This document shows positions 12,779-31,058 of a stretch of DNA of 32,000 bases, piece after piece. The stretch's first letter is position 1; every line of letters starts with the position of its first letter. The stretch is from Candidatus Omnitrophota bacterium (GTDB taxonomy: Bacteria > Omnitrophota > Gorgyraeia > 2-01-FULL-45-10), in contig JAMWCX010000001.1 of NCBI GenBank assembly GCA_023818895.1, positions 269,789-301,788 of the forward strand, read 5' to 3'. The translations under genes and the position numbers were made by a program. The notes beneath the pieces were generated by a model. It ran no database searches. It was not told the DNA's origin and saw only the letters and a list, made by a program, of their open reading frames with translations.

Positions 12779-13708
12779 TTAGGAGGCCGTCACCAGGGCC
12801 TGAATGTCGGAAGAAGCCCCTATGTTCTTCACCTCAAGTTTCGGATCTATCTTCTTCGCAAGGCCCTTGAGGACCTGGCCGGGCCCTATCTCTAAAAGCG
12901 TATTGACTCCGCTGCGGGCCACCAGCCTTATCGATTCTTCCCATAGGGTTCTCGAATTGACCTGGGTTATTAGGTTTTCCTTTATCCTGGCCGGATCGGT
13001 CTGAGGCTTTGCGTCGACATTGCTTATGAACGCTATCTTCGGGGGGAGTATCTGTACCTTTTCTATGTACTCCTTAAGCTTGTCGCGCGCGCTCGTCATC
13101 AGCGAAGAGTGAAACGGGCCGCTTACATCAAGAATCAGAACACGTTTTGCTCCTTTGTCCTTGGCAAGGCTCGCGAAAAGTTCTATATTATTGGTCTTGC
13201 CTGAAACGACTATCTGGCCTGGGCAATTAAGGTTTGCTATTTCGCAGCCGAGCCCCTTGCAGAGATCCTCGACCGCTTTAAGATCCATCCCTACGACGCA
13301 AGCCATCTTCCCCGGATTCTTCCGTGAGGCTTCTTCCATGTACTCCCCGCGTTTTCTTACAAGCACGATAGCATCCTCAAATGACAGGCATCCGGCGGCC
13401 ACAAGCGCTGTGTATTCACCCAGGCTTAGGCCCAGACTGAATCTTGGCGTAAACTGCTGGTAGAGGCTGGAAGATTCAAAAGCTCGCAATGCCGCGACGC
13501 TAACCGTAAGAATGGCGGGCTGGCTGTTGCTGGTAGTCGAAAGTTCTTCCTGGGGCCCTTCGAAACATATCTTTTTAAGAGGAAACTTAAGTATCGATTC
13601 CGCCTTTTCAAACACCTCCTTCGCCTGTGGGGAATTTTCATAAAGGTCTTTACCCATACCCACGAACTGGGCGCCCTGTCCCGGAAATATGAATGCGGCA
13701 TCTACCAT
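12779..13708 (-). CDS. fabD: malonyl-CoA:ACP transacylase
   Basis: Motifs FIFPGQGAQ and the nucleophile elbow GLSLGEYTA. I place the start at ATG 13708 (MVDAAFIFPGQG). The ORF-track start at 13729 is a TTG that adds 7 atypical residues. The ATG overlaps the fabH stop (ATGGTAG). Confidence 0.95.
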   Translation of the reverse strand: MVDAAFIFPGQGAQFVGMGKDLYENSPQAKEVFEKAESILKFPLKKICFEGPQEELSTTSNSQPAILTVSVAALRAFESSSLYQQFTPRFSLGLSLGEYTALVAAGCLSFEDAIVLVRKRGEYMEEASRKNPGKMACVVGMDLKAVEDLCKGLGCEIANLNCPGQIVVSGKTNNIELFASLAKDKGAKRVLILDVSGPFHSSLMTSARDKLKEYIEKVQILPPKIAFISNVDAKPQTDPARIKENLITQVNSRTLWEESIRLVARSGVNTLLEIGPGQVLKGLAKKIDPKLEVKNIGASSDIQALVTAS

Positions 13709-14688
13709 TCTATGACTATCGCCCCCCAAGTTAACCCGCCTCCAAAAGCGTCCAAAAGTATCTTATCGCCCTTCCGTATCCTGCCCTCTTCGACGGCCTC
13801 AACCAGAGCGACTGCGCTTGACGCGGCCGACATATTGCCGTATTTTTCCAAGTTAAGATAGATTTTGTCTTCCGAAAGACCGATTCTTTTTGCCGCGGCA
13901 TTTAGTATCCTGACGTTCGCCTGATGGGGAATAACAAGATGTACATCCTCCGCCTTAAGGCCGAGAGGCCGTGTGGCCTCAAGCGCAGCATCCGCCATAA
14001 TGCGAACCGCGTGCTTGAACAGCTCGGATCCGTTCATCTTTATGAAATGAAGTTTTCCCTCAATGCTTTTAGCCGTAGCCGGTATCCTGGAGCCTCCTGC
14101 CGGCAGTTTTATGAGATCGCCCTGCTTGCCGTCGGCACCGAGGTATATCGAAAGGATGCCGCCCCGTTCAACCGGACCCAATACAGCAGCGCCGGCGCCG
14201 TCGCCGAAAAGCACGCACGTTGACCTGTCGCTCCAGTCAGTTATAGAAGAGAGCTTCTCCGCGGCTATCACAAGGGCGCGCTTGTAAACCCCGGAACTTA
14301 TAAACTGTTTTGCTATCGCCAAACCATATATGAAACCTGAGCAGGCGACGCTGATATCGAAGGCGGGGATTTGCCTTGCGCCTATTTTTTCCTGCACAAG
14401 GCAGGCCGTTGCCGGAAAGAACATGTCAGGCGTAATAGTCGCGACTATTATAAGGTCTATGTCTTCTGGTTTCAGCTTTGCGTCCGCCAGAGCCTTTTTG
14501 GCTGCCTCAGCAGCCATGTCGCTTGTCGCCTCGTCCTCGCGGGCTATCCGCCTCTGTCTTATTCCGGTCCTGGTGACTATCCACTCGTCAGTCGTATCGA
14601 CTATTTTCTCGAGGTCCTTATTTGTAAGGATCTTTTTAGGTAGATATTTACCAAGGCCGATTATTCCGACTTTCGCTGTCTCACACAT
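13702..14688 (-). CDS. fabH: 3-oxoacyl-ACP synthase III
   Basis: 328 aa. Active-site Cys in FDISVACSGFIYGL, plus the IPHQAN and GGGLTWGA motifs. Confidence 0.95.
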   Translation of the reverse strand: MCETAKVGIIGLGKYLPKKILTNKDLEKIVDTTDEWIVTRTGIRQRRIAREDEATSDMAAEAAKKALADAKLKPEDIDLIIVATITPDMFFPATACLVQEKIGARQIPAFDISVACSGFIYGLAIAKQFISSGVYKRALVIAAEKLSSITDWSDRSTCVLFGDGAGAAVLGPVERGGILSIYLGADGKQGDLIKLPAGGSRIPATAKSIEGKLHFIKMNGSELFKHAVRIMADAALEATRPLGLKAEDVHLVIPHQANVRILNAAAKRIGLSEDKIYLNLEKYGNMSAASSAVALVEAVEEGRIRKGDKILLDAFGGGLTWGAIVIEW

Positions 14689-14689
14689 A

Positions 14690-15679
14690 TCAGTATGTTT
14701 CCAACTCCTCCAAGATATGTTTATTAACGCTGTTGGTCTTGAACTCGCCCGCCACCCTTATGGCGTTCTTTATAGCCTTTGGATTCGAGGAACCGTGGCT
14801 GATGATACACCTTCCGTCCACCCCGAGAAGCGGCGCTCCTCCGTATTCGGCGTAGTCCATCTTTTTCTTAAGTGCGTTGAATGCTGACGAGGCGAGCGCG
14901 GCGCCTAAAGTGGCAATGAGGTTGGATTTTATTTCATTTTTAAGCGCCTTGACCAGCGTATCGATAATGCTTTCAGAAACCTTTAGTATCACGTTTCCGA
15001 CAAATCCGTCGCATAAAATTATATCGACATTCCCAGTGTATATATCGCGGCCCTCGATATTGCCGACAAAGTTGAGTTTGGATTCGCTCAGAAGGGTATG
15101 GGCCTCTTTAACAAATTCGGTACCCTTGGTCTCCTCCTCGCCCACGTTCAATAGTCCTACCTTAGGATTTTCTTTATGAAGGATATACTTACAGTACGCG
15201 TCTGCCATGATACCGTATTGAAAAAGATGCAGCGGTTTTGGATTTATATTGGCTCCCACGTCCATTATCACTGAAGTACCGAGTAGCGTCGGTATCACTA
15301 TGGCTATTCCGGGACGCTCTATCCCCGGCAGCATCCGCAATGAGAGCGTGGCCGCGCAGACTACCGCTCCCGTATTGCCCGCGCTGACAAAACCATCGGC
15401 CTCTTCACGCTTAACGATATCAAGACCTACAACTATAGACGACTTGCGTTTGCGGCGGACGGAAAGGGCGGCCGGCTCATCCATCTCGATCCGTTCCGGC
15501 GCGTGCAGTATTGATATCTTATTACTAACAGCTGTGTGTTTTTCGAGCTCTTTCTTTATCGCCGTCTCATCGCCTACAAGCAGCACTTCGCTACCGTATT
15601 CTTGAGCCGCCTGTAAAGCTCCCTCGACCTCAACGGCCGGCGCCTGATCGCTGCCCATCGCATCAACTACTATCCTCAT
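14690..15679 (-). CDS. plsX: phosphate acyltransferase PlsX
   Basis: 329 aa. MRIVVDAMGSDQAP N-terminus and PlsX-typical motifs (GNTGA, CDGFVGN). Classic rpmF-plsX-fabH context. Confidence 0.95.
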   Translation of the reverse strand: MRIVVDAMGSDQAPAVEVEGALQAAQEYGSEVLLVGDETAIKKELEKHTAVSNKISILHAPERIEMDEPAALSVRRKRKSSIVVGLDIVKREEADGFVSAGNTGAVVCAATLSLRMLPGIERPGIAIVIPTLLGTSVIMDVGANINPKPLHLFQYGIMADAYCKYILHKENPKVGLLNVGEEETKGTEFVKEAHTLLSESKLNFVGNIEGRDIYTGNVDIILCDGFVGNVILKVSESIIDTLVKALKNEIKSNLIATLGAALASSAFNALKKKMDYAEYGGAPLLGVDGRCIISHGSSNPKAIKNAIRVAGEFKTNSVNKHILEELETY

Positions 15680-21567: not shown

Positions 21568-22119
21568 ATGAACGTAGGTGCGATCATACACAAGCTGCGC
21601 AAAGACAAGAAGATGACCCTCCTGGAATTATCCAATAAATCGGGTGTCGCCCTTGCCACATTAAGCAGAATAGAAAACGGAAAGATGACCGGCACGCTCG
21701 AATCACACATGCGCATATGCCAGGCCCTTGAGATATCCCTTCCCGATCTCTACCGAGATATGGTCGCCTCGACTCGCAAATTAGAAGTCCAGACTCAAAA
21801 GAACCGAACCGACGTTTTCATCCACGACAGGAAGGCGGCTTCTGAAATACTTGCCCCTGGCATCCTTAATAAAAAGATGATGCCTACTCTTATCAGGATC
21901 GCGAGCGGCGGGAATACCCCCAAGGAAGAGACCAAAACAGGGGTGGAGAAATTTCTCTACATTCTCGATGGAAAAGTAGAAGCCGTGATTGGCAGCGAAA
22001 AGTATCCTCTTTCGAAAGGTGACACATTATATTTTGAATCATCTGTCCCGCACTATTTCAGAAATACAGGCAAGGGCGACGCCCGATTAATCTCCGTAGT
22101 CTGCCCACCTACATTATAA
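21568..22119 (+). CDS. XRE-family HTH transcriptional regulator with C-terminal cupin domain
   Basis: 183 aa. HTH_3-type N-terminus (IHKLRKDKKMTLLELSNKSGVALATLSRIENGK) and a cupin_2-type C-terminus (EKFLYILDGKVEAVIG...GDTLYFESSVPHYFRNTG). Confidence 0.9.
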   Translation: MNVGAIIHKLRKDKKMTLLELSNKSGVALATLSRIENGKMTGTLESHMRICQALEISLPDLYRDMVASTRKLEVQTQKNRTDVFIHDRKAASEILAPGILNKKMMPTLIRIASGGNTPKEETKTGVEKFLYILDGKVEAVIGSEKYPLSKGDTLYFESSVPHYFRNTGKGDARLISVVCPPTL

Positions 22120-22144
22120 GGAGAGAAAAACGGAAAAATCCACA

Positions 22145-22378
22145 TTGATATGCGATGACGAGGAAGGCGTGCGGGAATCCTTACGGCTGATATTGGCGAA
22201 AAACTATAACCTATCATTTGCCTCAAACGGCAATAAAGTCATCGATCTGATGAGCAAGAGCGGTGCTGATATAGTCATCAGGGATATAAAAATGCCGCGG
22301 ATGGACGGCGTAGAGACGATGCGCCGATTGCGGCAGATAAGCCCTCGTGTTAAAATTCTTTCTCCATCCTTGTCATAA
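22145..22378 (+). pseudogene. remnant of a response-regulator receiver domain (about the first 65% only)
   Basis: The only start is TTG. The product (M)ICDDEEGVRESLRLIL...DIVIRDIKMPRMDGVETMRRLRQISPR carries the acidic pocket and the phospho-Asp (DIKMP). It then ends in non-receiver sequence (VKILSPSLS*) exactly where the opposite-strand kinase remnant begins. The conserved T/S and K regions are missing. Confidence 0.6.
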
Positions 22379-23384
22379 GTTGCTTGATAATATAAAGACC
22401 CAGCCCCACACCTGAGTGGCCATTCTTTGTCGTAAAAAACGGTTCGAAAGCATGATTCATATTTTCATCCGAAATCCCGCAACCCGTATCTCTTGCCGTT
22501 AACTCAATATAAAAACCCGCATCTTTTGCCGAGATCTTTATCCTGCCCTTTCTTCCTATGGCATGTATCGTGTTTTGAACCAGGTTAAAAAGTATCTTCT
22601 CGATATATTTTTTATTCCAGCGCACCTTAGGAGCGCCGCCAGTCGCGTCATCAACTAATATATCGTTGAGGGCCATCTCGGCTCCGGCGATATCCAAAAC
22701 GCTCTTAATGGGATCCTTAAGATCCACCGCCTCCATTAATTTGTAATCCGTGGCCTTTGAAAATTCTAAAAGATGAGTGCTAATATCGTTTATCTTATCC
22801 ACCTCTTTAGGTACGAGTTCTTGAAATTTTTCTATAAAGGAGGGGGTCGTCTTTTCTTTCTACGAGATATTCCGAAAATATCTTTATGGTCGTTATCGGA
22901 TTACGTATTTCGTGAGCCATCCCCGCGGCCAGAGTGCCGATGAGGGCCATCTTCTCTTTTTTGCGCGGCTTCGGCCTGCAATTAATTTCTTATCTTCTCG
23001 ACGGAGTCTTGAGGCGGGAAGGTAGCGAATTTCACATTGTGAGACGAAGCGACATAAAAAACATTTTTTATCTTTATCGAACAGCGAGACGGCGCACGAT
23101 GACACGCACAACATACTAATCAATTTAACGACGGTTAACTCCACCGACCTTGAAAGATCCGGGACGGCTAGAACCTCTCCGGTAAACATCTTCATCAAAT
23201 ATTTATAATTATATTTTTTCTGTAACAGATATCTGTCCGTTACACCTATTAGGAAATTTTCCAAAGGTGAAATATCAATATGACAATAATCACGCAGGGC
23301 ATTACGGCAAACCAGCAATTTTGATTTGCAAATGATAATAAATGTAATCGCCAAAGAATACGAAAATAGCATAAAGGCATACAA
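22350..23384 (-). pseudogene. decayed paralogue of the 25697-27850 sensor histidine kinase (truncated at both ends, at least 2 frameshifts)
   Basis: - The kinase is split over three frames.
- ORF 22893-23384 aligns with the last TM segment and linker of the intact kinase: PLENFLIGVTDRYLLQKKYNYKYLMKMFTGEVLAV versus PLESFLINITNKYLFQKKYDYKDLLKTFTSEVLTV.
- A second frame reads KKEKMALIGTLAAGMAHEIRNPITTI, which is the H-box.
- ORF 22350-22802 carries the N, G1 and G2 boxes (LFNLVQN, RDTGCGI, GVGLGL) but lacks the C-terminal strands.
- The frame changes map to an A6 run (22957-22962; the intact paralogue has A5 at the same codons) and a C5 run (22842-22846). Confidence 0.75.
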
Positions 23385-23550: not shown

Positions 23551-24942
23551 CTAGGAATCGACGTAATTGCTGTTATACCAGTAGCCACTCTTGCCATTAC
23601 TTAGTATATTCCCCTTCTCATATGCCAGTAAGAAGGCGCTTACAATCACCGGGTCGAACTGAGAACCAGAGCACCGCTTCAGCTCCTGCAAGGCCTCTTC
23701 GGCGGCCCTGCCCTTCCTGTAGGCCCTATTTGTAGTCATAGCGTCAAACGCGTCCGCAACAGCGATTATTCGCGCGATCAAAGGTATTCCGTTCCCTTTC
23801 AGCCCATCTGGATAACCCGAGCCGTCGTAACATTCCTGATGATGGCGCACTTCGCGGGCAACATCGCTAAGCTCCTTGATAGGGTTTAGTATGGTAGCGC
23901 CGATAATTGAATGCTTCTTGATCTCCTCGTATTCTTCAGGTGTAAGACGGGATTGCTTGTTGAGGATATGATCAGGTATACCGATCTTTCCTATATCGTG
24001 AAGCAGGGCCGCTATCTGCAAAGTCTCTCTGAAGTTCTTGTAATTCGCTATTTCCGGCAGCCCATCAAGCTCCTTGGCTATAGCAAGGCAATAGTTAGTC
24101 ACCCGCTCTGTATGTCCGTGCGTATACGGATCTCGCGCGTCTATGGCGGCGGCAAGGGCTATCGAAGTATGGATAAATATCCTGTGCTCCCTCAGATAAA
24201 GGCCCTTGATCTCCTCCACCTTCTGGTGCAGATTATCTATGAGCTGGGCGTTCGCGATGGCCATGGCGGCATCATTTGCCAGAGTAACGAAGAAACCCAT
24301 TTCTTCTCGCGTGAAAGGATCTCCGGATATCTTCTCTCCCAGCACAAGTATTCCCAGAAGATCTTTCTTAAAGTAGCATGGAACGCACAAAGAGGCTTTT
24401 ATGAGGTCCATCTGCCTTTTTAAAAGCAAAAGCTTATCATAAAGATCGGGCTGTTTTTCAAGTATATCCCTGTTCCTCAAAGCGTTAATGAGATCCTCAT
24501 ATCTAAGGATGCCTGTTTCGGATATAAGATAGCTTTGTTTTTCGCAGAATACGCTTATGAGGGGGTTGTCGATAGGAAGCCTGATAAAGCCCACTGGTAT
24601 CTTAAGGCCTTCGGCGCCTTTTGAATCTATAAGTATATAGGATTTTTTTTCTTCCTTGTAGAGAAGAACCGCTGTATGGGTAACCTTCAGTTGCTCATCT
24701 ATCGTCTTCACTATCATCTTGATAAGGTGTTCGGGTTTCTTGAACCTTATCATGGTCCTGGAAGCATTCTCCAAGAAGATCTGATAGTCGGCCTTAGGAA
24801 CGCTTGGCTCTATAAAAACAGAGCTGTTCAAGCCGCCATTACCGTTCGCGAGGGACTGAATGCTGTTGTCATGAGCAGCCAATTTTTCCACGAACCAGTC
24901 GTGAAGCTTTTCCCAACTGGGCGCTTTTTTGTTTGGTGTCAT
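23551..24942 (-). CDS. GAF-domain HD-GYP protein (probable c-di-GMP phosphodiesterase), no receiver domain
   Basis: 463 aa. The central region is GAF-like. The C-terminal region carries HDIGKIGIP...H...HHQECYDGSGYPDGLKG (HD and GYP signatures). ATGA overlap with the upstream receiver gene. Confidence 0.9.
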   Translation of the reverse strand: MTPNKKAPSWEKLHDWFVEKLAAHDNSIQSLANGNGGLNSSVFIEPSVPKADYQIFLENASRTMIRFKKPEHLIKMIVKTIDEQLKVTHTAVLLYKEEKKSYILIDSKGAEGLKIPVGFIRLPIDNPLISVFCEKQSYLISETGILRYEDLINALRNRDILEKQPDLYDKLLLLKRQMDLIKASLCVPCYFKKDLLGILVLGEKISGDPFTREEMGFFVTLANDAAMAIANAQLIDNLHQKVEEIKGLYLREHRIFIHTSIALAAAIDARDPYTHGHTERVTNYCLAIAKELDGLPEIANYKNFRETLQIAALLHDIGKIGIPDHILNKQSRLTPEEYEEIKKHSIIGATILNPIKELSDVAREVRHHQECYDGSGYPDGLKGNGIPLIARIIAVADAFDAMTTNRAYRKGRAAEEALQELKRCSGSQFDPVIVSAFLLAYEKGNILSNGKSGYWYNSNYVDS

Positions 24943-25325
24943 AAATGCGCTCGCATATTTCGCTCAACAGTGCACTCGAGGTGATCGAGCATGAGCGGTT
25001 TAGTTATATAATCGCAGGCTCCCAGCCTTACGGCCTCATCCATCTTGTCCTGGTCATCAAGGGCGGTTACCATGATAACTTTCTGACCCCTGTTTACCTC
25101 TTTAATGTGTTTTAAAGCCGCTATGCCATCCATACCCCGCAGCTTTATATCCAGCAATATAAGATGGGGCCTTTCGCGCTTTACTAAATCAATAGCCTCT
25201 TCGCCGGTGAGGGCGGTCAGGACCTTATAACCTCTCTCCTGAAAAAAATTTTTCACAAAATCGCAGATATCGCTCTCATCGTCTACTACTAGCATCTTGT
25301 ATGCTTCTTTGTCTCCTGCTATCAT
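24939..25325 (-). CDS. single-domain CheY-like response regulator
   Basis: 128 aa. MLVVDDESD...LILLDIKLRGMDG...VIMVTA...DYITKP. ATGA overlaps at both ends. Confidence 0.9.
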   Translation of the reverse strand: MIAGDKEAYKMLVVDDESDICDFVKNFFQERGYKVLTALTGEEAIDLVKRERPHLILLDIKLRGMDGIAALKHIKEVNRGQKVIMVTALDDQDKMDEAVRLGACDYITKPLMLDHLECTVERNMRAHL

Positions 25326-25693
25326 CTTTTCGACGCCTCATTGATAGTTTCTTCCAAAACCTTTAGGGAAGCTATGGGTTTATCAAAATACGCATAGGCT
25401 CCCATCTGTAAAAGACGCGCACGCGTCTTGCCTCCGTCATCATAGGCAGTCACGAATATCACCTTCGGTGAAGGCTGCATCGATTTTAAAAGCTTAAGCA
25501 CTTCATCACCGTCGATGCCTGGCATCTTGAGATCCATAAGCACAACATCGGGTTTTTTCTCTTTTATGGTCTCGATCCCCTTCGCGCCGCGTATCGCAAC
25601 GCTGATATCATATCCACGTGGTAAAAAATAATTCTGCAACATGTCAATAAACTCGGCTTCATCATCTATGGCCACTATAACCGGTTTTGTCAT
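25322..25693 (-). CDS. single-domain CheY-like response regulator
   Basis: 123 aa. VIVAIDDEAE...VVLMDLKMPGIDG...VIFVTAY...AYFDKP. It starts 3 nt after the kinase stop. Confidence 0.9.
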   Translation of the reverse strand: MTKPVIVAIDDEAEFIDMLQNYFLPRGYDISVAIRGAKGIETIKEKKPDVVLMDLKMPGIDGDEVLKLLKSMQPSPKVIFVTAYDDGGKTRARLLQMGAYAYFDKPIASLKVLEETINEASKR

Positions 25694-25696
25694 ATA

Positions 25697-27850
25697 TCAT
25701 ACTTTCGCCGGCTGTTTATCAGGCATCGGCATAGCGGGAAACTCAAGCGTAAAAGTGGTCCCCACGCCGACTTTCGTATTCTTCAGGAATATCCTGCCGC
25801 CGTTTTTCTCAACTACCTGTCGAACTATGAAAAGCCCGAGTCCAGTCCCTTTACCGGGCTCCTTTGTGGTAAAAAACGGGTTGAAAAGCTCTTTGATCTT
25901 GTCCTCCGCAATACCGGAACCGCTATCCTGGATATCTATGACAACCTTCGCGTCTTCACGTTTAGCGCTTATCGTTATACTGCCCTTTTCGCCTATCGCC
26001 TGCCCGGCGTTCCTTATAAGATTGAAAAGAACTTCCTGAAATTGCTTCCTGTCGACAAATATTTTAGGAAGCCCATCTTCTATCTTCTTGTCAAATTCTA
26101 TCTTTTCAAGCCTAAGCTCGTAGCCGACCAGGCCGAATACCTCATCAATCTCCTTGCCAATATCAACTATTTCCGCTTCGCCCTTTGCTGGTTTCGCGAA
26201 GCCGGAAAGTTTTTTCGTTATGGCAGTGGCTCTATCGGTCTCCTTTATGACTTTGCCCATTATCTCTTCGGCTTTTTTCAAAAGTTCCTCAGGGCTCTTG
26301 TTTTTATATAATCCATCTTTCATATTAAGAAGGAAGGCCTCGCATTGCCCCCTCGCAATACCGAGAGGATTACATATCTCATGATTTATGCCAGCAGAAA
26401 GAGTGCCTATAACCGCCATCTTCTCTTTTTGGGCTGCCTCAGCTTGCGTTTTGCCCAGTTCCTCAAAGAGCTCGGCATTAGACACTGCTATGGCAAGGGT
26501 TCTTGCAAGCGGCAAAAGTATATCAAGATCATCCTGGGTGTAGTCTTCATCGGATTTCTTTTTCCCTAAAGACAATATTCCTATCACTTTATCGTGCAAG
26601 ACCATTGGAATAATTAATTCTGCGCTCAATCTATCCATAACAGATAAAATAGAGGCAGGAACGGTAACATTTTTTTCATAAAATTCGGTACGCAAAAGAT
26701 AGCGATGCGTTTGTTCAAAGTATTTAACAGCGACATTTATTCTATCTAAAGTTATTAGCGGATCCTTAAGATTTTTCGAGGCCTTAACTATATAAAGACA
26801 CTTTTCATTATCAAAAAGTAATATCGAGCAGGATGCCAACTTTATTATGTCATCGAGCTTATTTATCGTAAGATTTACAAGCCTATCCAGGTCTAGAACG
26901 GTTAGCACTTCAGAGGTGAATGTCTTTAGTAGGTCCTTATAGTCATATTTTTTTTGAAAAAGATATTTATTGGTAATGTTTATTAAGAAGCTTTCCAAAG
27001 GACGGAACATAAATGTTACTATTACTATGCTTGGAATTATTGAAAGCCAACGATTTGAGAATACGTATTTTTCGAAAAATACTTGTCCTAAAAAGGCAAA
27101 GATAGCAAAAACAGCATATACGCTTCCAAAAAGACCCGCAAAGACAAGAGTCTTTTTGACTAATATCTCAATATCGAGAAACTTATGTTTAACTATAGCA
27201 TAGGCTGTCATGATGACATAAACCGCTACCAAGCAATTCAGAAAAGGCGGCACTGGCACTCCGAACCATGGTAGATAATTAGTAGATCCGCCGACAAAGC
27301 CAATAAGCGTTCCTATGCCGACAAGAAAAATCTGCGCTTTTTTTTGGTGGTCTGCGCTGCCGTAGCTGGAAAATAGCAAATATATAGATTTACCAGTGTA
27401 CCAAAAAAATGTTAAAAGAAACGGCACATATAACACCCCAGGCACACCATAATATGGCATACCGCCTATCGGCTTCATGTCAGGGATATAGTATCTACTA
27501 AATGAAAATGCCAAAAAGAAAAGTGCTAACAAATATCCGGCGAGCAGCTCTCTCCGGTTCCTTCTATTGATGAATGCTGTAACAAAATGATAAAAGCCTA
27601 TAGGTATTAATATTGCTCCGATGTGAAGGATCCTAAACCAAAAAAGACATGCCTCCTTGCTATCAGCCAAGGGCCAGAAGATGTATGGATAACTCCAGGC
27701 CGCCACATAAAGAGCAAATAACGCAAAGGTTTTATTAACTATACTACGCCTGTTATTAAAGTAAACAAATATGGTTAAAAGGCTTGAGGTTATGGCATTT
27801 ATGAAGCCGGAAATAGATATAAATATCAGAAACGGATCCATCTTGCTCAT
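25697..27850 (-). CDS. sensor histidine kinase: multi-pass membrane N-terminal domain, GAF, HisKA, HATPase_c
   Basis: 717 aa. The first ~290 aa hold about 8-9 hydrophobic segments with short loops (my reading by eye), resembling 7TM-type kinase N-terminal sensor domains. A GAF-like region follows. H-box GINHEICNPLG. N/G1/G2 boxes LFNLIRNAGQA, QDSGSGI and GTGLGL. ATGA overlap with the ketosynthase stop. Confidence 0.9.
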   Translation of the reverse strand: MSKMDPFLIFISISGFINAITSSLLTIFVYFNNRRSIVNKTFALFALYVAAWSYPYIFWPLADSKEACLFWFRILHIGAILIPIGFYHFVTAFINRRNRRELLAGYLLALFFLAFSFSRYYIPDMKPIGGMPYYGVPGVLYVPFLLTFFWYTGKSIYLLFSSYGSADHQKKAQIFLVGIGTLIGFVGGSTNYLPWFGVPVPPFLNCLVAVYVIMTAYAIVKHKFLDIEILVKKTLVFAGLFGSVYAVFAIFAFLGQVFFEKYVFSNRWLSIIPSIVIVTFMFRPLESFLINITNKYLFQKKYDYKDLLKTFTSEVLTVLDLDRLVNLTINKLDDIIKLASCSILLFDNEKCLYIVKASKNLKDPLITLDRINVAVKYFEQTHRYLLRTEFYEKNVTVPASILSVMDRLSAELIIPMVLHDKVIGILSLGKKKSDEDYTQDDLDILLPLARTLAIAVSNAELFEELGKTQAEAAQKEKMAVIGTLSAGINHEICNPLGIARGQCEAFLLNMKDGLYKNKSPEELLKKAEEIMGKVIKETDRATAITKKLSGFAKPAKGEAEIVDIGKEIDEVFGLVGYELRLEKIEFDKKIEDGLPKIFVDRKQFQEVLFNLIRNAGQAIGEKGSITISAKREDAKVVIDIQDSGSGIAEDKIKELFNPFFTTKEPGKGTGLGLFIVRQVVEKNGGRIFLKNTKVGVGTTFTLEFPAMPMPDKQPAKV

Positions 27851-29070
27851 TCTTCGTATTTTTTAAGAACACAGGCGGCGCACTTTCCGCCAAACGCATA
27901 GCTGTTAATCAATGCGGCTTTTATATTTTTTCTTAGCGGTTTTTCAACTATCAGATTTAAGTTTGAATTCTTAAACAAATTTTTTGTATTTAGTGTATGG
28001 GGCGCGATCCCCTCTTTTATGGCCAATGCGGTTGTGGCAATTTGTAATGCGCTTGCGGCGGCAAGAGGGTGCCCTATGAGAGGCTTAATTGATGTTACGG
28101 GAATTTCCGCCAACGATTTCCCAAAACAAGCCTTAAGCACAACCGATTCAAATAGGTCAAAATGACCAACCCCCATGCCATGCGCATTTATAAAGTCTAC
28201 TTGTTCTTTTTTTATACCAGCATACTGAATAGCACCGTCTATGGTTTTAACGGCTACTTCGCCATGATGCTCGCGCTTAAAATGATTAAAACCTTCACAT
28301 AAGACGTTTACACCCCCTATCTCACAATAAATATTGGCGTTTCTCTTAATTGCATGGCCGAGGTCTTCGATGATAAACATAGCGGCTCCCTCTCCAAGAA
28401 CAGTGCCATCAGCATTTTCGTCGAACGGCCGTATCCTATCGTTTGTAAGCGCCTTAATGATATTTAGCCCCGCGTATGGCAACGGTGCAAAAGCCGATTC
28501 CGAACCACCCACAACCATAGCGTCGTAATTTTCATATTTGATCTTCTTCACAGCTATATCCAAGGCAGAAACCGATGAAATACACGCGGACGAAACAGCT
28601 TCCGAGCAACCTCTTATCCCAAGCTCAACCGATATATCAGATGGAATGCAATTATGTAGCGCCATATGGCCCAAACACTTATGGACATGTTCATAGGTAC
28701 TATTCTCTAGGACTCTCTGTTGGTGAAGAATAAAAGATATTGTGCCAAGAGTTGTCCCAACTATGACGCCAATACGATCCCTGTTTATTTCACTAATATT
28801 AAGACCCGCATCCTTAACAGCCATAACCGAAGAAGCCACGCCGAGTTTGGATGTTATATCCATAGCAGTTGCGTCATTCTTTCTTATGTATTCCAAAGGA
28901 TCGAAATCAACAACCTCTGCCCCAAGAGATGTTGGGAATTTGCTGGTATCAAATCTGCTCAATTTTCTTATTCCGGAAATTCCATTAAGAGCATTATTCC
29001 AGAAAATATTTTTACCGGAACCTATGGGCGTAATAACCCCGATGCCAGTAATTACCACTCTCTTGGGCAT
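27847..29070 (-). CDS. beta-ketoacyl synthase of the KAS I/II (FabB/FabF) type, divergent
   Basis: MPKRVVITGIGVITPIGSG N-terminus. The catalytic Cys sits in VSSACISSVSALD, with His in FINAHGMG, Lys and His in SIKPLIGHPLAAAS, and a C-terminal NSYAFGGK. I prefer ATG 29070, which gives TAGtATG with the upstream stop. The ORF-track start at 29100 adds 10 residues and a 29-nt overlap. Confidence 0.85.
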   Translation of the reverse strand: MPKRVVITGIGVITPIGSGKNIFWNNALNGISGIRKLSRFDTSKFPTSLGAEVVDFDPLEYIRKNDATAMDITSKLGVASSVMAVKDAGLNISEINRDRIGVIVGTTLGTISFILHQQRVLENSTYEHVHKCLGHMALHNCIPSDISVELGIRGCSEAVSSACISSVSALDIAVKKIKYENYDAMVVGGSESAFAPLPYAGLNIIKALTNDRIRPFDENADGTVLGEGAAMFIIEDLGHAIKRNANIYCEIGGVNVLCEGFNHFKREHHGEVAVKTIDGAIQYAGIKKEQVDFINAHGMGVGHFDLFESVVLKACFGKSLAEIPVTSIKPLIGHPLAAASALQIATTALAIKEGIAPHTLNTKNLFKNSNLNLIVEKPLRKNIKAALINSYAFGGKCAACVLKKYEE

Positions 29071-29071
29071 A

Positions 29072-29884
29072 CTAGATTTTTCTACCCGTGCAGTATTCAT
29101 ACATACCCATATTATCGAGGCTTATTATGACGTCTCTAAAACCGGCTTCAAGAAGCCACTGTCTATATTGCCTGGGCGACCTCAAGAACATAGTCCATTT
29201 TTTCCCATTCATTGTTAACCCTATATCTTTCATCAAATCTGCGTTTGAATTGCTCGCCTGAGCTGTAAATAGTACAAGACCGCCGCAGGAAAGGTGCTTA
29301 TATATTTCAGCAAGAAAACTTTTAACTACTTCATCGCTTTGCATTTCAAAAAAGCCCGTTGTCATTATAATGTCCGGTATCCAGTTCACTTTTTTTGAAA
29401 AATTTTTCAAATGGCCGAGCGAAAAAAGATTGGCCCTTGCATATCGAATCGGTTTATTCCCAGCCAGGATCTTGCCGAAATTAACAGATCTTTTATCAAT
29501 ATCAAGACATAAGGCTTCGACATGGTTTTTGCTATGCTCATCCACTAAGTCAACCAAGTACCGTGCCGGGCCAGATGCAAGATCGAGTATCCGCGTCTTT
29601 TTTCCAAAAAAAATATTATTTTCGATTTCATTCAAAATTATCTTTATTATAATATCCTTTTTACGCCTGGTTGCCTTGACGGTTGGCAGGTTTAAAAGAA
29701 CGGAATCGACAAACTTTCCAACAGGCGTTATACCTTTCGGGTGTTTTCTATATATATGGTCAATATTAAGCCCGGAATCAGCCGATCCGCCTATGATATT
29801 CCGACCTAGTTTGCTAATTGAAAATATCGGTCTAAGTATCCTTTTATTAAAGAGTTGCTGTATTGTTTTTATAAACCCATCCAT
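29072..29884 (-). CDS. class I SAM-dependent methyltransferase with ~95-aa N-terminal extension
   Basis: 270 aa. Motif I RILDLASGPARYL, an acidic post-I residue in ALCLDID, and later GGLVLFT. The subfamily and substrate cannot be recognised by eye. Confidence 0.78.
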   Translation of the reverse strand: MDGFIKTIQQLFNKRILRPIFSISKLGRNIIGGSADSGLNIDHIYRKHPKGITPVGKFVDSVLLNLPTVKATRRKKDIIIKIILNEIENNIFFGKKTRILDLASGPARYLVDLVDEHSKNHVEALCLDIDKRSVNFGKILAGNKPIRYARANLFSLGHLKNFSKKVNWIPDIIMTTGFFEMQSDEVVKSFLAEIYKHLSCGGLVLFTAQASNSNADLMKDIGLTMNGKKWTMFLRSPRQYRQWLLEAGFRDVIISLDNMGMYEYCTGRKI

Positions 29885-29886
29885 TG

Positions 29887-29903
29887 AATAAAGGTACTTT
29901 ATT
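29887..29903. promoter_or_regulatory. 7-3-7 palindrome AATAAAG-gta-CTTTATT abutting the methyltransferase start codon
   Basis: Read from the sequence. It lies 2 nt upstream of the ATG (29884..29882) on the transcribed strand, where an RBS would be expected. No SD-like motif is visible there. Confidence 0.45.
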
Positions 29904-29954
29904 ATTAGCTTTGGTTTTTATTAATAAACCTGCCGTTATAGTCTATATTACCCA

Positions 29955-30137
29955 CTACTTCTCGTGCTCTTCCTGCTCGGCAATCCAGCGGTCGATGGTT
30001 GATTTCTTGAAGCGCCAATTTGCGCCCACCTTAAAACACGGAAGTTTGCCTGCTTTGGCATGTTTGTATATAGTAACAGGCTTCATCCGGAGATAAGCGG
30101 CAAGCTCCTGAACAGTAAATACTATGTCTTCTGCCAT
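29955..30137 (-). CDS. small excisionase/MerR-type (HTH_17-like) DNA-binding protein
   Basis: The 60-aa version is MAEDIVFTVQELAAYLRMKPVTIYKHAKAGKLPCFKVGANWRFKKSTIDRWI.... The ATG at 30137 is preceded by AAGAGGGGGAGGT. The 76-aa ORF-track version adds 16 residues (MLLMTSRSESLGRGGG) with no resemblance to this family. Confidence 0.8.
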   Translation of the reverse strand: MAEDIVFTVQELAAYLRMKPVTIYKHAKAGKLPCFKVGANWRFKKSTIDRWIAEQEEHEK

Positions 30138-30167
30138 ACCTCCCCCTCTTCCTAATGATTCGGATCT

Positions 30168-30187
30168 GCTTGTCATAAGTAACAAGC
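30168..30187. promoter_or_regulatory. inverted repeat GCTTGT-n8-ACAAGC upstream of the HTH gene
   Basis: 6-bp arms (30168-30173 and 30182-30187) with an 8-nt spacer, 31-50 nt upstream of the preferred ATG. Confidence 0.4.
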
Positions 30188-30262
30188 TATATTTTGTTTA
30201 AAAAACAGTCATCTCTAATTAATGGCTTGTATTGTTTTATACGCTTTAGCATAGACTAATAC

Positions 30263-30317
30263 GCCCTTACACAACTTTGTATAAGGGCACATAGGTTAGC
30301 TTAGGGTGCTACAAAGT
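30263..30317. other. nested inverted repeats in the 270-bp spacer (hairpin GCCCTTA-n12-TAAGGGC whose loop pairs with a downstream 8-mer)
   Basis: GCCCTTA (30263-30269) and TAAGGGC (30282-30288) are complementary. The loop 8-mer ACTTTGTA (30274-30281) is exactly complementary to TACAAAGT (30310-30317). Confidence 0.6.
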
Positions 30318-30455
30318 ATACACCATAATCTTTAAATGTCAAGCGTTAGGAACTGATTATTTTAAAATAAATTTAATAAGATACTGATAATAAAGAGGTT
30401 AGAAAAAATAATTTTTTGTATTTTGATTTGAAAATCGGTGGGTTTTTATAAAATA

Positions 30456-31058
30456 CTATACTTTATACCAATCCAGTTCGTGCGCTAGGTCCTTAATCTC
30501 TTTTTGCAAACGGTCAATATTGTTATCGAACTGACTGATATCTGCGGGCTTCGAATCAGCAAGTTTTTTTAGGTTTTCCAGCTCAATAAGGACTTTGGTA
30601 AGGCTTGCCTTTTGGCGTCCTATCGTTTGCTTCATACTATCAGACAAAAGATTAATTTTATCAGCGATTGAACCTAATTCATCGCCTTTTCTAAGGCTAA
30701 GGCGCGAGGTAAGGTTGCCGCCTGCCATATCCTCCAAAAATCTCTCCATCCTATATATAGGACCAGCTATCTTATGTGATAGGTATATACCTATATACGC
30801 GACAAAAGGCATAAGGAGTACAATGCTCAACAAAACCCTGAAATTAACCGTTTTTATTATTGCTATCAGCCTACCTTGTGGATAAACATTCGCGAGCTTT
30901 TCTGCAAGAAGTATCATGCTTGAATAATATACAACATACGAGCACACAATAGCGGTTATAAACATCAAAAGCAAGATTAACCCTACATATTTGAGTTGAA
31001 ATTTCGCCGAGACAAATAGTTGCTTTCTTTTGAATCTGGTCTTGTTATTAGCTATCAT
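30456..31058 (-). CDS. two-TM HAMP-domain protein with C-terminal coiled coil and no recognisable output domain
   Basis: 200 aa. The N-terminal motif RKQLFVSAKFQLKY is followed by two hydrophobic helices, a HAMP domain (IAGPIYRMERFLEDMAGGNLTSRLSLRKGDELGSIADKINLLSDSM) and heptad-like sequence. ATGA overlap with the upstream gene. Confidence 0.8.
   Translation of the reverse strand: MIANNKTRFKRKQLFVSAKFQLKYVGLILLLMFITAIVCSYVVYYSSMILLAEKLANVYPQGRLIAIIKTVNFRVLLSIVLLMPFVAYIGIYLSHKIAGPIYRMERFLEDMAGGNLTSRLSLRKGDELGSIADKINLLSDSMKQTIGRQKASLTKVLIELENLKKLADSKPADISQFDNNIDRLQKEIKDLAHELDWYKV

Follow-up and report, generated by a model that had tools for sequence, protein, structure and literature searches.

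A candidate lipid-product and sensor circuit in Omnitrophota that combines exchangeable enzyme cassettes with a predicted cyclic-dinucleotide output

The gene cluster described here is located on the reverse strand of a 32,000-nucleotide stretch of the genome of a Candidatus Omnitrophota bacterium (contig JAMWCX010000001.1), which is referred to in its entirety as the window. The cluster starts with a gene for a small helix-turn-helix protein of the HTH_17 family, followed by genes for an S-adenosylmethionine (SAM)-dependent methyltransferase, a beta-ketoacyl synthase (KAS), a membrane-embedded histidine kinase with HisKA_7TM, GAF, and HATPase_c domains, two CheY-like single-domain receivers (RR1 and RR2), and a GAF/HD-GYP protein (Table 1). 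As judged by comparison with its relatives, this locus is made up of two evolutionary modules, namely, a conserved backbone, consisting of the HTH_17 protein, the GAF domain, the kinase core, both receivers, and the HD-GYP protein, and a hypervariable module, consisting of the enzyme cassette and transmembrane helices 1 to 7 of the kinase (referred to as 7TM). With moderate confidence, the operon is read here as a self-contained lipid-product and sensor circuit with a cyclic-dinucleotide output.

The six consecutive open reading frames (ORFs) and the upstream helix-turn-helix gene reported in a first-pass annotation of this DNA were all recovered in the ORF listing with the same coordinates, and the domain types and the five junctions proposed there agree with the Pfam calls and with our reading of the sequence. 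The HTH_17 gene is located 70 nt upstream of the methyltransferase gene, as had been noted, behind an AT-rich spacer. The junction between the methyltransferase and KAS genes is +1 nt (TAGtATG) and that between the KAS and kinase genes -4 nt (ATGA), followed by +3 nt between the kinase and RR1 genes, -4 nt between the two receiver genes, and -4 nt between the RR2 and HD-GYP genes.

Table 1. Coordinates of the features of the cluster and its surroundings (positions in the window)
Feature	Position	Strand	Basis
HTH_17 small DNA-binding protein (excisionase/MerR-like), first gene of the unit	29955..30137	-	PF12728, 60 bits
YnbC-family (PF12147) class I SAM-dependent methyltransferase, variable cassette	29072..29884	-	Pfam, 89.5 bits
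FabF-derived cluster-specific KAS, variable cassette	27847..29070	-	PF00109 + PF02801
Whole kinase gene (HisKA_7TM, GAF, HATPase_c)	25697..27850	-	Pfam
Hypervariable sensor, kinase transmembrane helices 1-7, residues 1-215 (HisKA_7TM)	27206..27850	-	entropy, identities
Conserved kinase part: transmembrane helices 8-9, linker, GAF, DHp H-box (His490), HATPase_c	25697..27205	-	domain calls
RR1, CheY-like single-domain receiver	25322..25693	-	PF00072, 83 bits
RR2, CheY-like single-domain receiver	24939..25325	-	PF00072, 97 bits
GAF + HD-GYP predicted cyclic-dinucleotide phosphodiesterase, without receiver domain	23551..24942	-	HD_5, 140.7 bits
Stretch replaced between related genomes: enzyme cassette + 5' sensor-coding part of the kinase gene	26640..29958	.	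blastn breakpoints
Leader hairpin/inverted repeat GCCCTTATAC..GTGTAAGGGC	30263..30288	-	11-bp stem, predicted -15.9 kcal/mol
Sigma-70-type promoter-like site upstream of the HTH_17 gene	30315..30342	-	TTGACA-16 nt-TATACT, 11/12 matches
Spacer upstream of the HTH_17 gene	30186..30455		270 bp, 27% GC
200-aa membrane protein with HAMP domain and coiled coil, left flank	30456..31058	-	HAMP, 25 bits
Decayed paralogous kinase	22368..23267	-	tblastn
Truncated receiver fragment	22127..22360	+	tblastn
HTH_3 + Cupin_2 regulator, conserved right flank	21568..22119	+	Pfam
plsX	14690..15679		
fabH	13702..14688		
fabD	12779..13729		

Dozens of independent genomes and metagenome contigs have this arrangement as well. 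Loci were collected from GTDB species representatives (34 loci) and supplemented with loci found via identical proteins (L numbers below). A PF12147 methyltransferase gene adjoins a HisKA_7TM-GAF sensor gene in 25 of the 26 evaluable Omnitrophota-type loci, either directly or with acyl enzymes alone between the two. Variant A, to which the window belongs, has the order HTH_17, methyltransferase, KAS, kinase, receiver, receiver, HD-GYP, and some of its members possess in addition a BioF-like alpha-oxoamine synthase (AOS). In variant B the methyltransferase is followed by a FabK-like reductase, a GDSL hydrolase, and the kinase, and in variant C an alpha/beta-hydrolase-receiver fusion precedes the methyltransferase and the kinase. 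The first-pass annotation had proposed to check whether the methyltransferase and KAS co-occur with kinase, receiver, and HD-GYP genes elsewhere, and they were found linked in these dozens of loci; its main alternative was a chance adjacency in a compact genome. Because the methyltransferase adjoins the sensor in nearly all evaluable loci and the window-type KAS clade was found in such clusters only, chance is excluded, and the enzyme and signaling genes form one conserved functional unit.

Five close relatives of the kinase were sampled on contigs without PF12147 and were found at the same chromosomal site next to wholly different enzyme sets. The cassettes of L045 to L047 encode pairs of ketosynthase (KS) and chain-length factor (CLF)-like proteins, a ketoreductase (KR), an acyl carrier protein (ACP), a LuxD-like acyltransferase-class I methyltransferase fusion, a nitroreductase, and FAD oxidases. 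That of L048 contains an ApeI-like dehydratase, KS, NAD reductase, KR, ACP, KS, and FAD oxidases, and that of L049, which lacks a methyltransferase, KR, KS, dehydratase (DH), KS, ACP, and KS. Scanning metagenomes with the kinase core provided 13 further loci with enough upstream flank, and all 13 carry a fatty-acid or polyketide-type cassette between the HTH_17 and kinase genes. Taking the five close kinases, these metagenome loci, and the methyltransferase loci together, at least eight cassette types were observed, drawn from KS, CLF-like, KR, DH, ACP, FAD oxidase, LuxD-like thioesterase-methyltransferase fusion, AOS, FabK-like, and GDSL components. The earlier proposal of methyltransferase plus KAS as the enzymes of the system was thus borne out in their link to signaling but not as a fixed pair, since they are one allele of a hypervariable cassette that in some relatives has no methyltransferase. 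In the metagenome contig L093 (4700-5244), the next ORF after HTH_17 (94% identical) appears to be that of a kinase whose start is within the GAF region or beyond it, and cassette and 7TM part are both missing; either the whole variable module was lost in a natural deletion or the assembly collapsed across it.

The borders of the variable module can be located in alignments with close relatives. Between L049 and the window, synteny extends to recG, pta, ackA, rpmF, and plsX; the DNA similarity of the two breaks off at the end of the HTH_17 gene (29958) and begins again at about 26640, within the kinase gene. In blastn comparisons with L046, L048, and L049, nothing was matched from the end of the HTH_17 gene to the inside of the kinase gene, where similarity resumes at about 26640-26990, and the flanks are 69-79% identical. 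Protein identities between the window and L046 are 88% for HTH_17, 85% for RR1, 74% for RR2, 76% for the HD-GYP protein, and 78% for the kinase core, versus 39% for the 7TM part, and the cassette enzymes are unrelated. Across the relatives compared, the kinase core is 77-82% and the 7TM part 32-46% identical; with respect to L002, L003, and L045 to L047, the GAF domain is 57-72% and the core 69-82% identical. A search with the sensor half of the kinase identified more than 100 Omnitrophota kinases, and the column entropy computed over 118 homologs was 2.35-2.68 bits at residues 1-215 as compared with mostly 0.4-1.9 bits in the rest of the kinase. Kinase cores of Omnitrophota homologs are 78-84% identical to that of the window, whereas residues 81-200 are mostly 15-38% identical. 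The exceptions, at 63-66% over residues 81-200, are the four kinases P0207, P0209, P0210, and P0211, three of which are on contigs with a window-type KAS (the neighborhood of P0211 was outside this check). Base composition follows the same division: the GC content is 0.406 in the variable block (27206-29884), 0.439 in the backbone, and 0.499 in the rest of the window. It ranges from 0.37 to 0.44 over 26000-31000 as compared with 0.49-0.52 in the first 21 kb, with the lowest values in the methyltransferase gene (0.384) and the spacer (0.27-0.30), and this low GC content fits an exchanged cassette.

A link emerges between the sensor of a given locus and its enzymes. Pairwise identities were compared among nine loci with a cluster-type KAS, or among eight once the methyltransferase was added. 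Over the nine loci, the identity of the 7TM part is correlated with that of the KAS (r = 0.89; Mantel p = 1.5e-4) and only weakly with that of the kinase core (r = 0.34). In the eight-locus matrix, methyltransferase, KAS, and 7TM form one group (0.67-0.85) and GAF and core another (0.77), with cross terms of 0.16-0.43. Two pairs of loci dissociate in opposite directions: the window and L002 share 82% identity in the kinase core, 41% in the KAS, and 39% in the 7TM part, whereas c11119 and L002 share 32% in the core, 65% in the KAS, and 79% in the 7TM part. The sensor helices therefore travel with the enzymes, even onto an unrelated kinase. That the 7TM part co-varies with the enzymes and not with its own kinase core is compatible with a kinase that senses the product of these enzymes.

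The kinase itself was predicted to contain about nine hydrophobic helices with short loops within residues 1-290, in agreement with the helix-rich sensor region described in the first-pass annotation. Pfam identified HisKA_7TM (57 bits), GAF, and HATPase_c domains, and the H-box INHEICNPL has its His at residue 490. An AlphaFold2 model of the 7TM region (pLDDT 91) predicts a seven-helix bundle with a short beta-hairpin loop, for which Foldseek returned only a weak likeness to eukaryotic GPCR bundles (E of 2e-3 or higher; TM-score of 0.54 or lower). Omnitrophota show a strong expansion of the HisKA_7TM sensor family, and shorter kinases of this family that lack a GAF domain (about 460-560 aa) were also observed in tandem arrays near the clusters, at L012:4506-9490 and L018:2346-7676. 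Literature searches on HisKA_7TM and on Omnitrophota kinases yielded no account of this system.

The methyltransferase matches PF12147 (Methyltransf_20) well above the cutoff of 21 bits, with its residues 35-263 covering model positions 73-303 of 309. Motif I (DLASGPARY, with D101, S104, and G105) and D128 are invariant across 28 homologs. Its AlphaFold2 model (pLDDT 91) has a Rossmann fold, and its fold neighbors, O- and C-methyltransferases of small molecules, include the polyketide C-methyltransferase CurJ and AprA MT2; no likeness to rRNA-, tRNA-, or CheR-type enzymes was seen for the model, and no CheR was among the top 50 fold matches. A profile sequence search against the PDB gave marginal generic hits only (cyclopropane fatty acid synthase, E = 0.012). 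An assignment by profile and structure had been suggested as a check, and it placed the protein in the YnbC family and not among rRNA or tRNA methyltransferases. PF12147 corresponds in essence to the C-terminal domain of Escherichia coli YnbC, an alpha/beta-hydrolase-methyltransferase fusion that scores 502 bits on this family and whose methyltransferase domain is 25% identical to the window protein. The ynbABCD operon also encodes a CDP-alcohol phosphatidyltransferase, a CdsA paralog, and a PAP2 phosphatase, and distant PF12147 loci in other phyla contain Hydrolase_4, CdsA-like, PlsC-type, and PAP2 genes and no signaling genes. Family and fold neighbors therefore point to lipid or acyl compounds as the probable substrates; literature searches on PF12147/Methyltransf_20 and YnbC found no paper describing the substrate of any member. 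In variant C relatives, a Hydrolase_4-receiver gene is located directly upstream of the methyltransferase gene, and the window cluster contains no Hydrolase_4 partner, either fused or adjacent. A route resembling that of BioC, BioH, and BioF, in which malonyl-ACP is O-methylated, elongated, and de-esterified before an AOS acts, was also considered. The AOS proteins of relatives are indeed BioF-like (342 bits), and the methyltransferase is paired with esterases in relatives, but the BioC score is 16 bits (cutoff 185), bioA, bioB, and bioD are absent from all loci, and the window has no esterase; this route was kept as a possible chemical analogy only.

A methyltransferase next to a kinase and CheY-like receivers also invites comparison with CheR/CheB-type adaptation, according to which the enzyme would methylate the kinase or another protein and an esterase would reverse the reaction. 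Variants B and C do pair the methyltransferase with a GDSL or alpha/beta hydrolase, this hydrolase can be fused to a receiver as in CheB, and genes for CheY-like receivers come next. However, variant A loci, including the window, have no esterase, the hydrolases of the relatives are lipase-type (GDSL, Hydrolase_4) and not CheB-type, and genes for KAS, AOS, FabK-like, ACP, enoyl-CoA hydratase (ECH), KR, and DH proteins would make no sense for protein methylation. Together with the placement of the methyltransferase in a family found alongside lipid genes and with small-molecule enzymes as fold neighbors, this led us to reject protein methylation as very unlikely.

The KAS retains the Cys/His/His/Lys catalytic residues, as had been noted earlier: SSACISS, AHG, and SIKPLIGH align with the active-site positions of Bacillus subtilis FabF, to which it is about 40% identical (264 bits). 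It reaches 350.2 bits on the FabF equivalog TIGR03150, below the cutoff of 493.75. It has AHGMGV where FabF has AHGTST and AFGGKC where FabF has GFGGHN, so both Thr residues of HGTxT are lost. These features define a cluster-specific clade with the motif AHG(M/L/I)G(V/L/I) plus AFGGKC, whereas all canonical FabF proteins sampled have AHGTST and GFGGHN. Members of the clade are 43-67% identical, and all share contigs with methyltransferase homologs; L043 and L044, both checked, carry the clade KAS within a cluster of the order methyltransferase, KAS, kinase, receiver, receiver. The next-best matches beyond the clade are ordinary FabF proteins of Clostridia (38% identity). The window enzyme thus belongs to a dedicated FabF-derived clade with altered active-site motifs, in line with the divergent second KAS proposed earlier. 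The motifs and the sub-cutoff equivalog score therefore argue against a housekeeping role, a judgment made from the 32-kb window.

An alternative that bears on these data is that the KAS is the housekeeping FabF and the methyltransferase has some unrelated role, both being mere neighbors of a two-component operon. The housekeeping plsX, fabH, and fabD genes were found at 12779-15679, about 13 kb from the KAS as had been stated, and no fabF was seen after fabD or elsewhere beside this cluster, which together with the complete catalytic residues and the identity to FabF speaks for such a role. Against it are the restriction of the KAS clade to these clusters, the loss of both Thr residues, and the score of 350 as compared with 494 bits at the equivalog cutoff. 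In addition, genomes with variants B, C, and D-F have no KAS of this clade and so must have another FabF, the methyltransferase gene accompanies the sensor gene in all but one of the evaluable loci, and the enzymes co-vary with the 7TM part. Unrelated neighbors were consequently considered extremely unlikely.

Upstream of the cassette, the HTH_17 protein is 60 aa long when counted from the ATG at 30137, which is preceded by a GGAGG ribosome-binding site. It is 86-94% identical in L002, L046, L053, L082, and L093, irrespective of the cassette that follows, and the gene is the conserved left edge of the variable region. The promoter-like site was the top-scoring one in a scan of the region, and its hexamers (30342-30315) align with those in L002 and L003; the surrounding block (30245-30363) is conserved in L046 and L049, with 76% of its nucleotides identical. 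The leader hairpin, which follows closely after the -10 element, is conserved between the window and L002 and could be an operator, for instance for the HTH_17 protein, or a leader RNA element. A Rfam search of the leader and spacer returned chance-level hits only, with no riboswitch for cyclic di-GMP (c-di-GMP) and no family for the hairpin.

Further upstream, homologs of the HAMP membrane protein (52-58% identity) are encoded directly upstream of HTH_17 in L053, L062, L071, L082, and L093, and this protein may or may not be part of the system. Genes for PgpA and a CDP-alcohol phosphatidyltransferase were observed just upstream of HTH_17 in L039 (6431-7491) and L040, and PgpA alone in L044 (476-925), which may be a coincidence or a further link to lipids. 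On the other side of the cluster, the HTH_3 + Cupin_2 gene is at the same position in L002, L046, L048, L049, and many other loci. Just downstream of the HD-GYP gene, in the region 22127-23384, is a decayed kinase paralog without 7TM part, pieces of which match residues 284-356, 474-496, and 516-682 in different frames. It is followed by a receiver fragment with about 31% identity to residues 2-79 of RR1. Intact extra "orphan" kinases are present at the position of the decayed paralog in L054, L061, L065, L085, and L092, and intact opposite-strand receivers at the same site in L054, L061, L065, and L085.

Several loci adjoin genes for giant secreted proteins (Laminin_G_3, Peptidase_C39; about 3900-4300 aa), RHS-repeat toxins, Fic, or AbiEii, as at L002:17845-18807, L048:14621-20142, L041:3009-6977, and L046:12405-13454, and the neighborhood may be a hotspot for variable or conflict genes. 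One could therefore ask whether the hypervariability is that of an anti-phage or interbacterial locus, such as one based on MADS-like methylation. In addition to these neighbors, this is suggested by weak PADLOC hits of the HTH protein to mad1 (24.5 bits) and of the methyltransferase to mad2 (34.5 bits) and by an NCBIfam MAD1 score of 65.7 bits, below the cutoff of 80. These hits, all below cutoffs, fall on generic HTH_17 and Rossmann regions, however, and no other MADS component is present. The methyltransferase matches PF12147 far better, at 89.5 bits, and the variable genes throughout encode enzymes of the fatty-acid or polyketide type and share one operon with a kinase, receivers, and an HD-GYP gene. 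A defense or conflict island was hence rejected as barely credible.

The output side of the cluster is well conserved. RR1 possesses the DD, D54-equivalent, T, and K residues and is 85% identical to its counterpart in L046; RR2 is 74% identical to its own counterpart and 37% identical to RR1, and it forms a separate orthologous group. The HD-GYP protein, 76-81% identical in relatives, has its HD motif at residue 315, HH at 367, and GYP at 376. It consists of GAF and HD_5 domains only, so the earlier description of an HD-GYP protein without receiver preceded by two stand-alone receivers holds. Among proteins of solved structure it is closest to V-cGAP3 (130 bits), PmGH (116 bits), and PA4781; the best match, V-cGAP3, is a 3'3'-cGAMP phosphodiesterase, and PmGH is a c-di-GMP enzyme. 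In L009 (12497-14542), HisKA_7TM, GAF, and HD-GYP are combined in one protein with neither kinase domain nor receivers, and because 7TM-GAF is there fused directly to HD-GYP, the latter is the probable conserved output of this sensor family. At the cluster in L009 and in L046/L059 there is also a gene for a FadL-type channel, through which hydrophobic compounds would cross the outer membrane.

Further fusions connect signaling domains with the enzymes. The methyltransferase is fused to PilZ in relatives (P0065, P0066, and P0073; L001, L010, and L038), the alpha/beta hydrolase (Hydrolase_4) carries a C-terminal receiver in eight variant C loci (for example, L011:204-1505), and a receiver is fused to a phosphopantetheine-binding ACP in L001 (5589-6398). 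These fusions are direct evidence of a post-translational action of the relay and of c-di-GMP on the enzymes. The PilZ-methyltransferase fusions in related clusters are also the one argument, an indirect one, for c-di-GMP as the nucleotide of the HD-GYP protein.

These data can be combined into a mechanism. The YnbC-family methyltransferase and the dedicated KAS would divert an acyl-ACP intermediate into a small methylated acyl product, most likely a methyl ester or a methyl-branched beta-keto or beta-hydroxy acyl compound. Being hydrophobic, this product would partition into the membrane, where the neighboring kinase would recognize it with its matched, hypervariable 7TM bundle. The conserved GAF-kinase core would pass the signal to the two single-domain receivers, which, through direct contact between proteins, would influence the GAF/HD-GYP phosphodiesterase and probably the enzymes as well. 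As a result, c-di-GMP levels would change and a feedback loop on synthesis would close. We infer the product, its role as the ligand, the route of phosphotransfer, the nucleotide hydrolyzed, and the level, between or within cells, at which sensing takes place. A cassette with a matched sensor is the pattern that would be expected of a strain-specific lipid signal and its receptor. A combined circuit of this type had been proposed in the first-pass annotation, and the conserved unit, the lipid or acyl enzymes, the co-variation of the 7TM part, and the HD-GYP output speak for it, although its fixed methyltransferase-KAS composition did not stand.

Several points weigh against this mechanism. The whole case is comparative genomics of uncultivated organisms. 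The KAS gene adjoins the 7TM-coding region, and physical linkage alone would give part of the correlation between them. In one discordant case, the 7TM part of L046, which has cassette D, is 61% identical to that of L002, which has methyltransferase, AOS, and KAS, so similar sensors can accompany different cassettes. The cassette of the window has no thioesterase or hydrolase that would release a free acid for O-methylation, and no ACP; as some alleles have no methyltransferase at all, the system in general can do without methylation. In the HD-GYP protein a receiver domain is absent, and the enzyme closest to it in sequence among those of solved structure degrades cGAMP. Finally, the direction seen in the fusions is from relay to enzyme: PilZ-methyltransferase, hydrolase-receiver, and receiver-ACP proteins directly show only the relay and c-di-GMP controlling the enzymes, and not the reverse.

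This last point fits an explanation in which the lipid enzymes are output only. The 7TM part would respond to something else, for example the physical state of the membrane, a lipid of a host or prey, or an environmental hydrophobic compound, and the relay and c-di-GMP would switch the enzymes post-translationally and so alter the cell's own membrane or surface lipids; the enzyme product would not be the ligand. The signaling input domains on the methyltransferase, hydrolase, and ACP agree with it, as do the occurrence of the wider PF12147/YnbC family in phospholipid-biosynthesis operons without signaling genes and the PgpA and CDP-alcohol phosphatidyltransferase genes just upstream of the cluster in L039, L040, and L044. 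In addition, kinases whose sensors consist of transmembrane helices only, such as DesK, sense the state of the membrane. However, one would expect conservation in a sensor of a generic membrane property, and this explanation does not account for a hypervariability that is confined to the 7TM part, nor for the exchange of that part together with the enzymes, even onto an unrelated core as seen for c11119 and L002. Furthermore, at least eight chemically different cassettes on one backbone suit the diversification of a recognized molecule better than homeostasis. Lipid remodeling as mere output is considered unlikely on balance, though deserving of more weight than the other alternatives, and the sensing of the cassette's own product remains the preferred reading.

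An extension of this preferred reading, which is put forward tentatively and is considered less probable than the circuit itself, is that Omnitrophota possess "lipid pherotypes": a single site would hold interchangeable lipid cassettes, each with its matching 7TM module, on a common kinase-CheY-CheY-HD-GYP backbone, and orphan kinases with near-identical cores would hear the lipids of other strains. If true, this would represent a new family of cell-to-cell signals and receptors, for kin or strain recognition, in an uncultivated phylum whose nano-sized members may be host-dependent, with an output that is wholly post-translational via a cyclic dinucleotide. No signaling system for Omnitrophota was found described in the literature searched, and the locus is a first concrete, testable candidate for chemical communication or self-sensing in this phylum. 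It also provides functional leads for three orphan families, namely, the YnbC-type methyltransferases (PF12147), the HisKA_7TM sensors, and the FabF-derived KAS clade with an altered active site. The at least eight cassettes with matched sensors on one backbone amount to a natural experiment on the specificity of bacterial seven-helix receptors, and the wiring is unusual in that PilZ and receiver domains are placed on lipid enzymes and the HD-GYP output is not accompanied by a DNA-binding regulator.

The first-pass annotation had compared the operon with the Phc and Rpf systems and had stated that no system with this gene combination was known to it. Literature searches, which included the combination of a methyl-ester signal with a kinase and an HD-GYP protein, found no description of this system either, and the comparison stands as a resemblance of logic only; an RpfF-type synthase, a receiver-HD-GYP architecture of the RpfG type, and a LysR-type output were not encountered. 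In phcBSRQ of Ralstonia, the gene of PhcB, which is described as carrying a SAM-dependent methyltransferase domain, is located directly upstream of that of the sensor kinase, followed by two receivers without DNA-binding domains (PMC11960443, PMC6989110). The order of methyltransferase, kinase, and two receivers is similar here, although a shared order alone does not show homology. In the window, a KAS gene is inserted between methyltransferase and kinase genes, whereas variant C relatives have methyltransferase, kinase, and receiver in direct succession. The Phc signals of Ralstonia solanacearum are methyl 3-hydroxymyristate or methyl 3-hydroxypalmitate. The Omnitrophota system differs in that the sensor is a HisKA_7TM-GAF kinase, the cassette is swapped wholesale between relatives with some alleles devoid of a methyltransferase, and the output gene encodes a GAF/HD-GYP protein, no PhcA-type LysR gene being present in the window cluster or its conserved flanks.

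The Rpf/DSF system of Xanthomonas likewise combines a fatty-acid-derived signal, a membrane-embedded kinase, and an HD-GYP phosphodiesterase as output. The receiver (REC) domain of RpfC binds RpfF, so a receiver controls the synthase post-translationally, as cited in PMC6989110. The window cluster contains no RpfF-type crotonase (ECH domain), and an ECH gene was seen among the relatives in L012 only. Its kinase is not a hybrid with REC and HPt domains, and its HD-GYP protein carries a GAF domain instead of the REC domain of RpfG, the receivers being separate proteins. Vibrio CqsA/CqsS and Legionella LqsA/LqsS/LqsR resemble the system in that an alpha-oxoamine synthase makes an acyl-derived signal that is sensed by a kinase with a transmembrane-only sensor, but the sensor family and output differ from those of the window. 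The sister alleles L002, L003, and L007 carry an AOS in the cassette, and the window allele does not; the AOS proteins of L002 and L003 are the BioF-like ones mentioned above and score only 195-197 bits against the CqsA-type family (cutoff 428).

Two further comparisons concern the enzymes. In Photorhabdus PpyS/PluR and DarABC/PauR, a dedicated ketosynthase-family enzyme makes a small lipid-like signal; these ketosynthases are KAS III-like, and the receptors are cytoplasmic LuxR-type proteins rather than membrane kinases. E. coli YnbC belongs to the same family as the methyltransferase and has a lipase-type Hydrolase_4 partner as in Omnitrophota variant C, but it is a hydrolase-methyltransferase fusion in a phospholipid-type operon without signaling genes, whereas the window methyltransferase is a stand-alone protein paired with a KAS.

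With respect to the architecture of variation, the comparison is with Staphylococcus agr and Streptococcus com. In these loci a hypervariable region spans the signal-producing genes and the N-terminal transmembrane sensor of the kinase, conserved regulators and kinase core flank it, and signal and receptor diversify together. In Omnitrophota, blastn, identities, and entropy likewise revealed conserved flanks around a block that spans the synthase genes and the sensor, and the sensor co-varies with the synthase and not with the core, with the reservation that the two are physically linked. Breakpoints at a domain boundary and the retention of presumably working chimeras are also known from agr and com. 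The signals there are ribosomal peptides and the output is a DNA-binding regulator, whereas fatty-acid or polyketide-type enzymes vary here and the output is a predicted cyclic-dinucleotide phosphodiesterase. The same breakpoints and chimeras also fit a report on Ralstonia that PhcB and PhcS group according to the type of signal, whatever the phylotype (PMC11960443). The likeness to Phc, Rpf, Cqs/Lqs, and agr/com is one of logic only, and membership in none of them is supported; the system appears to be built from uncharacterized families according to a logic that resembles that of known signaling systems.

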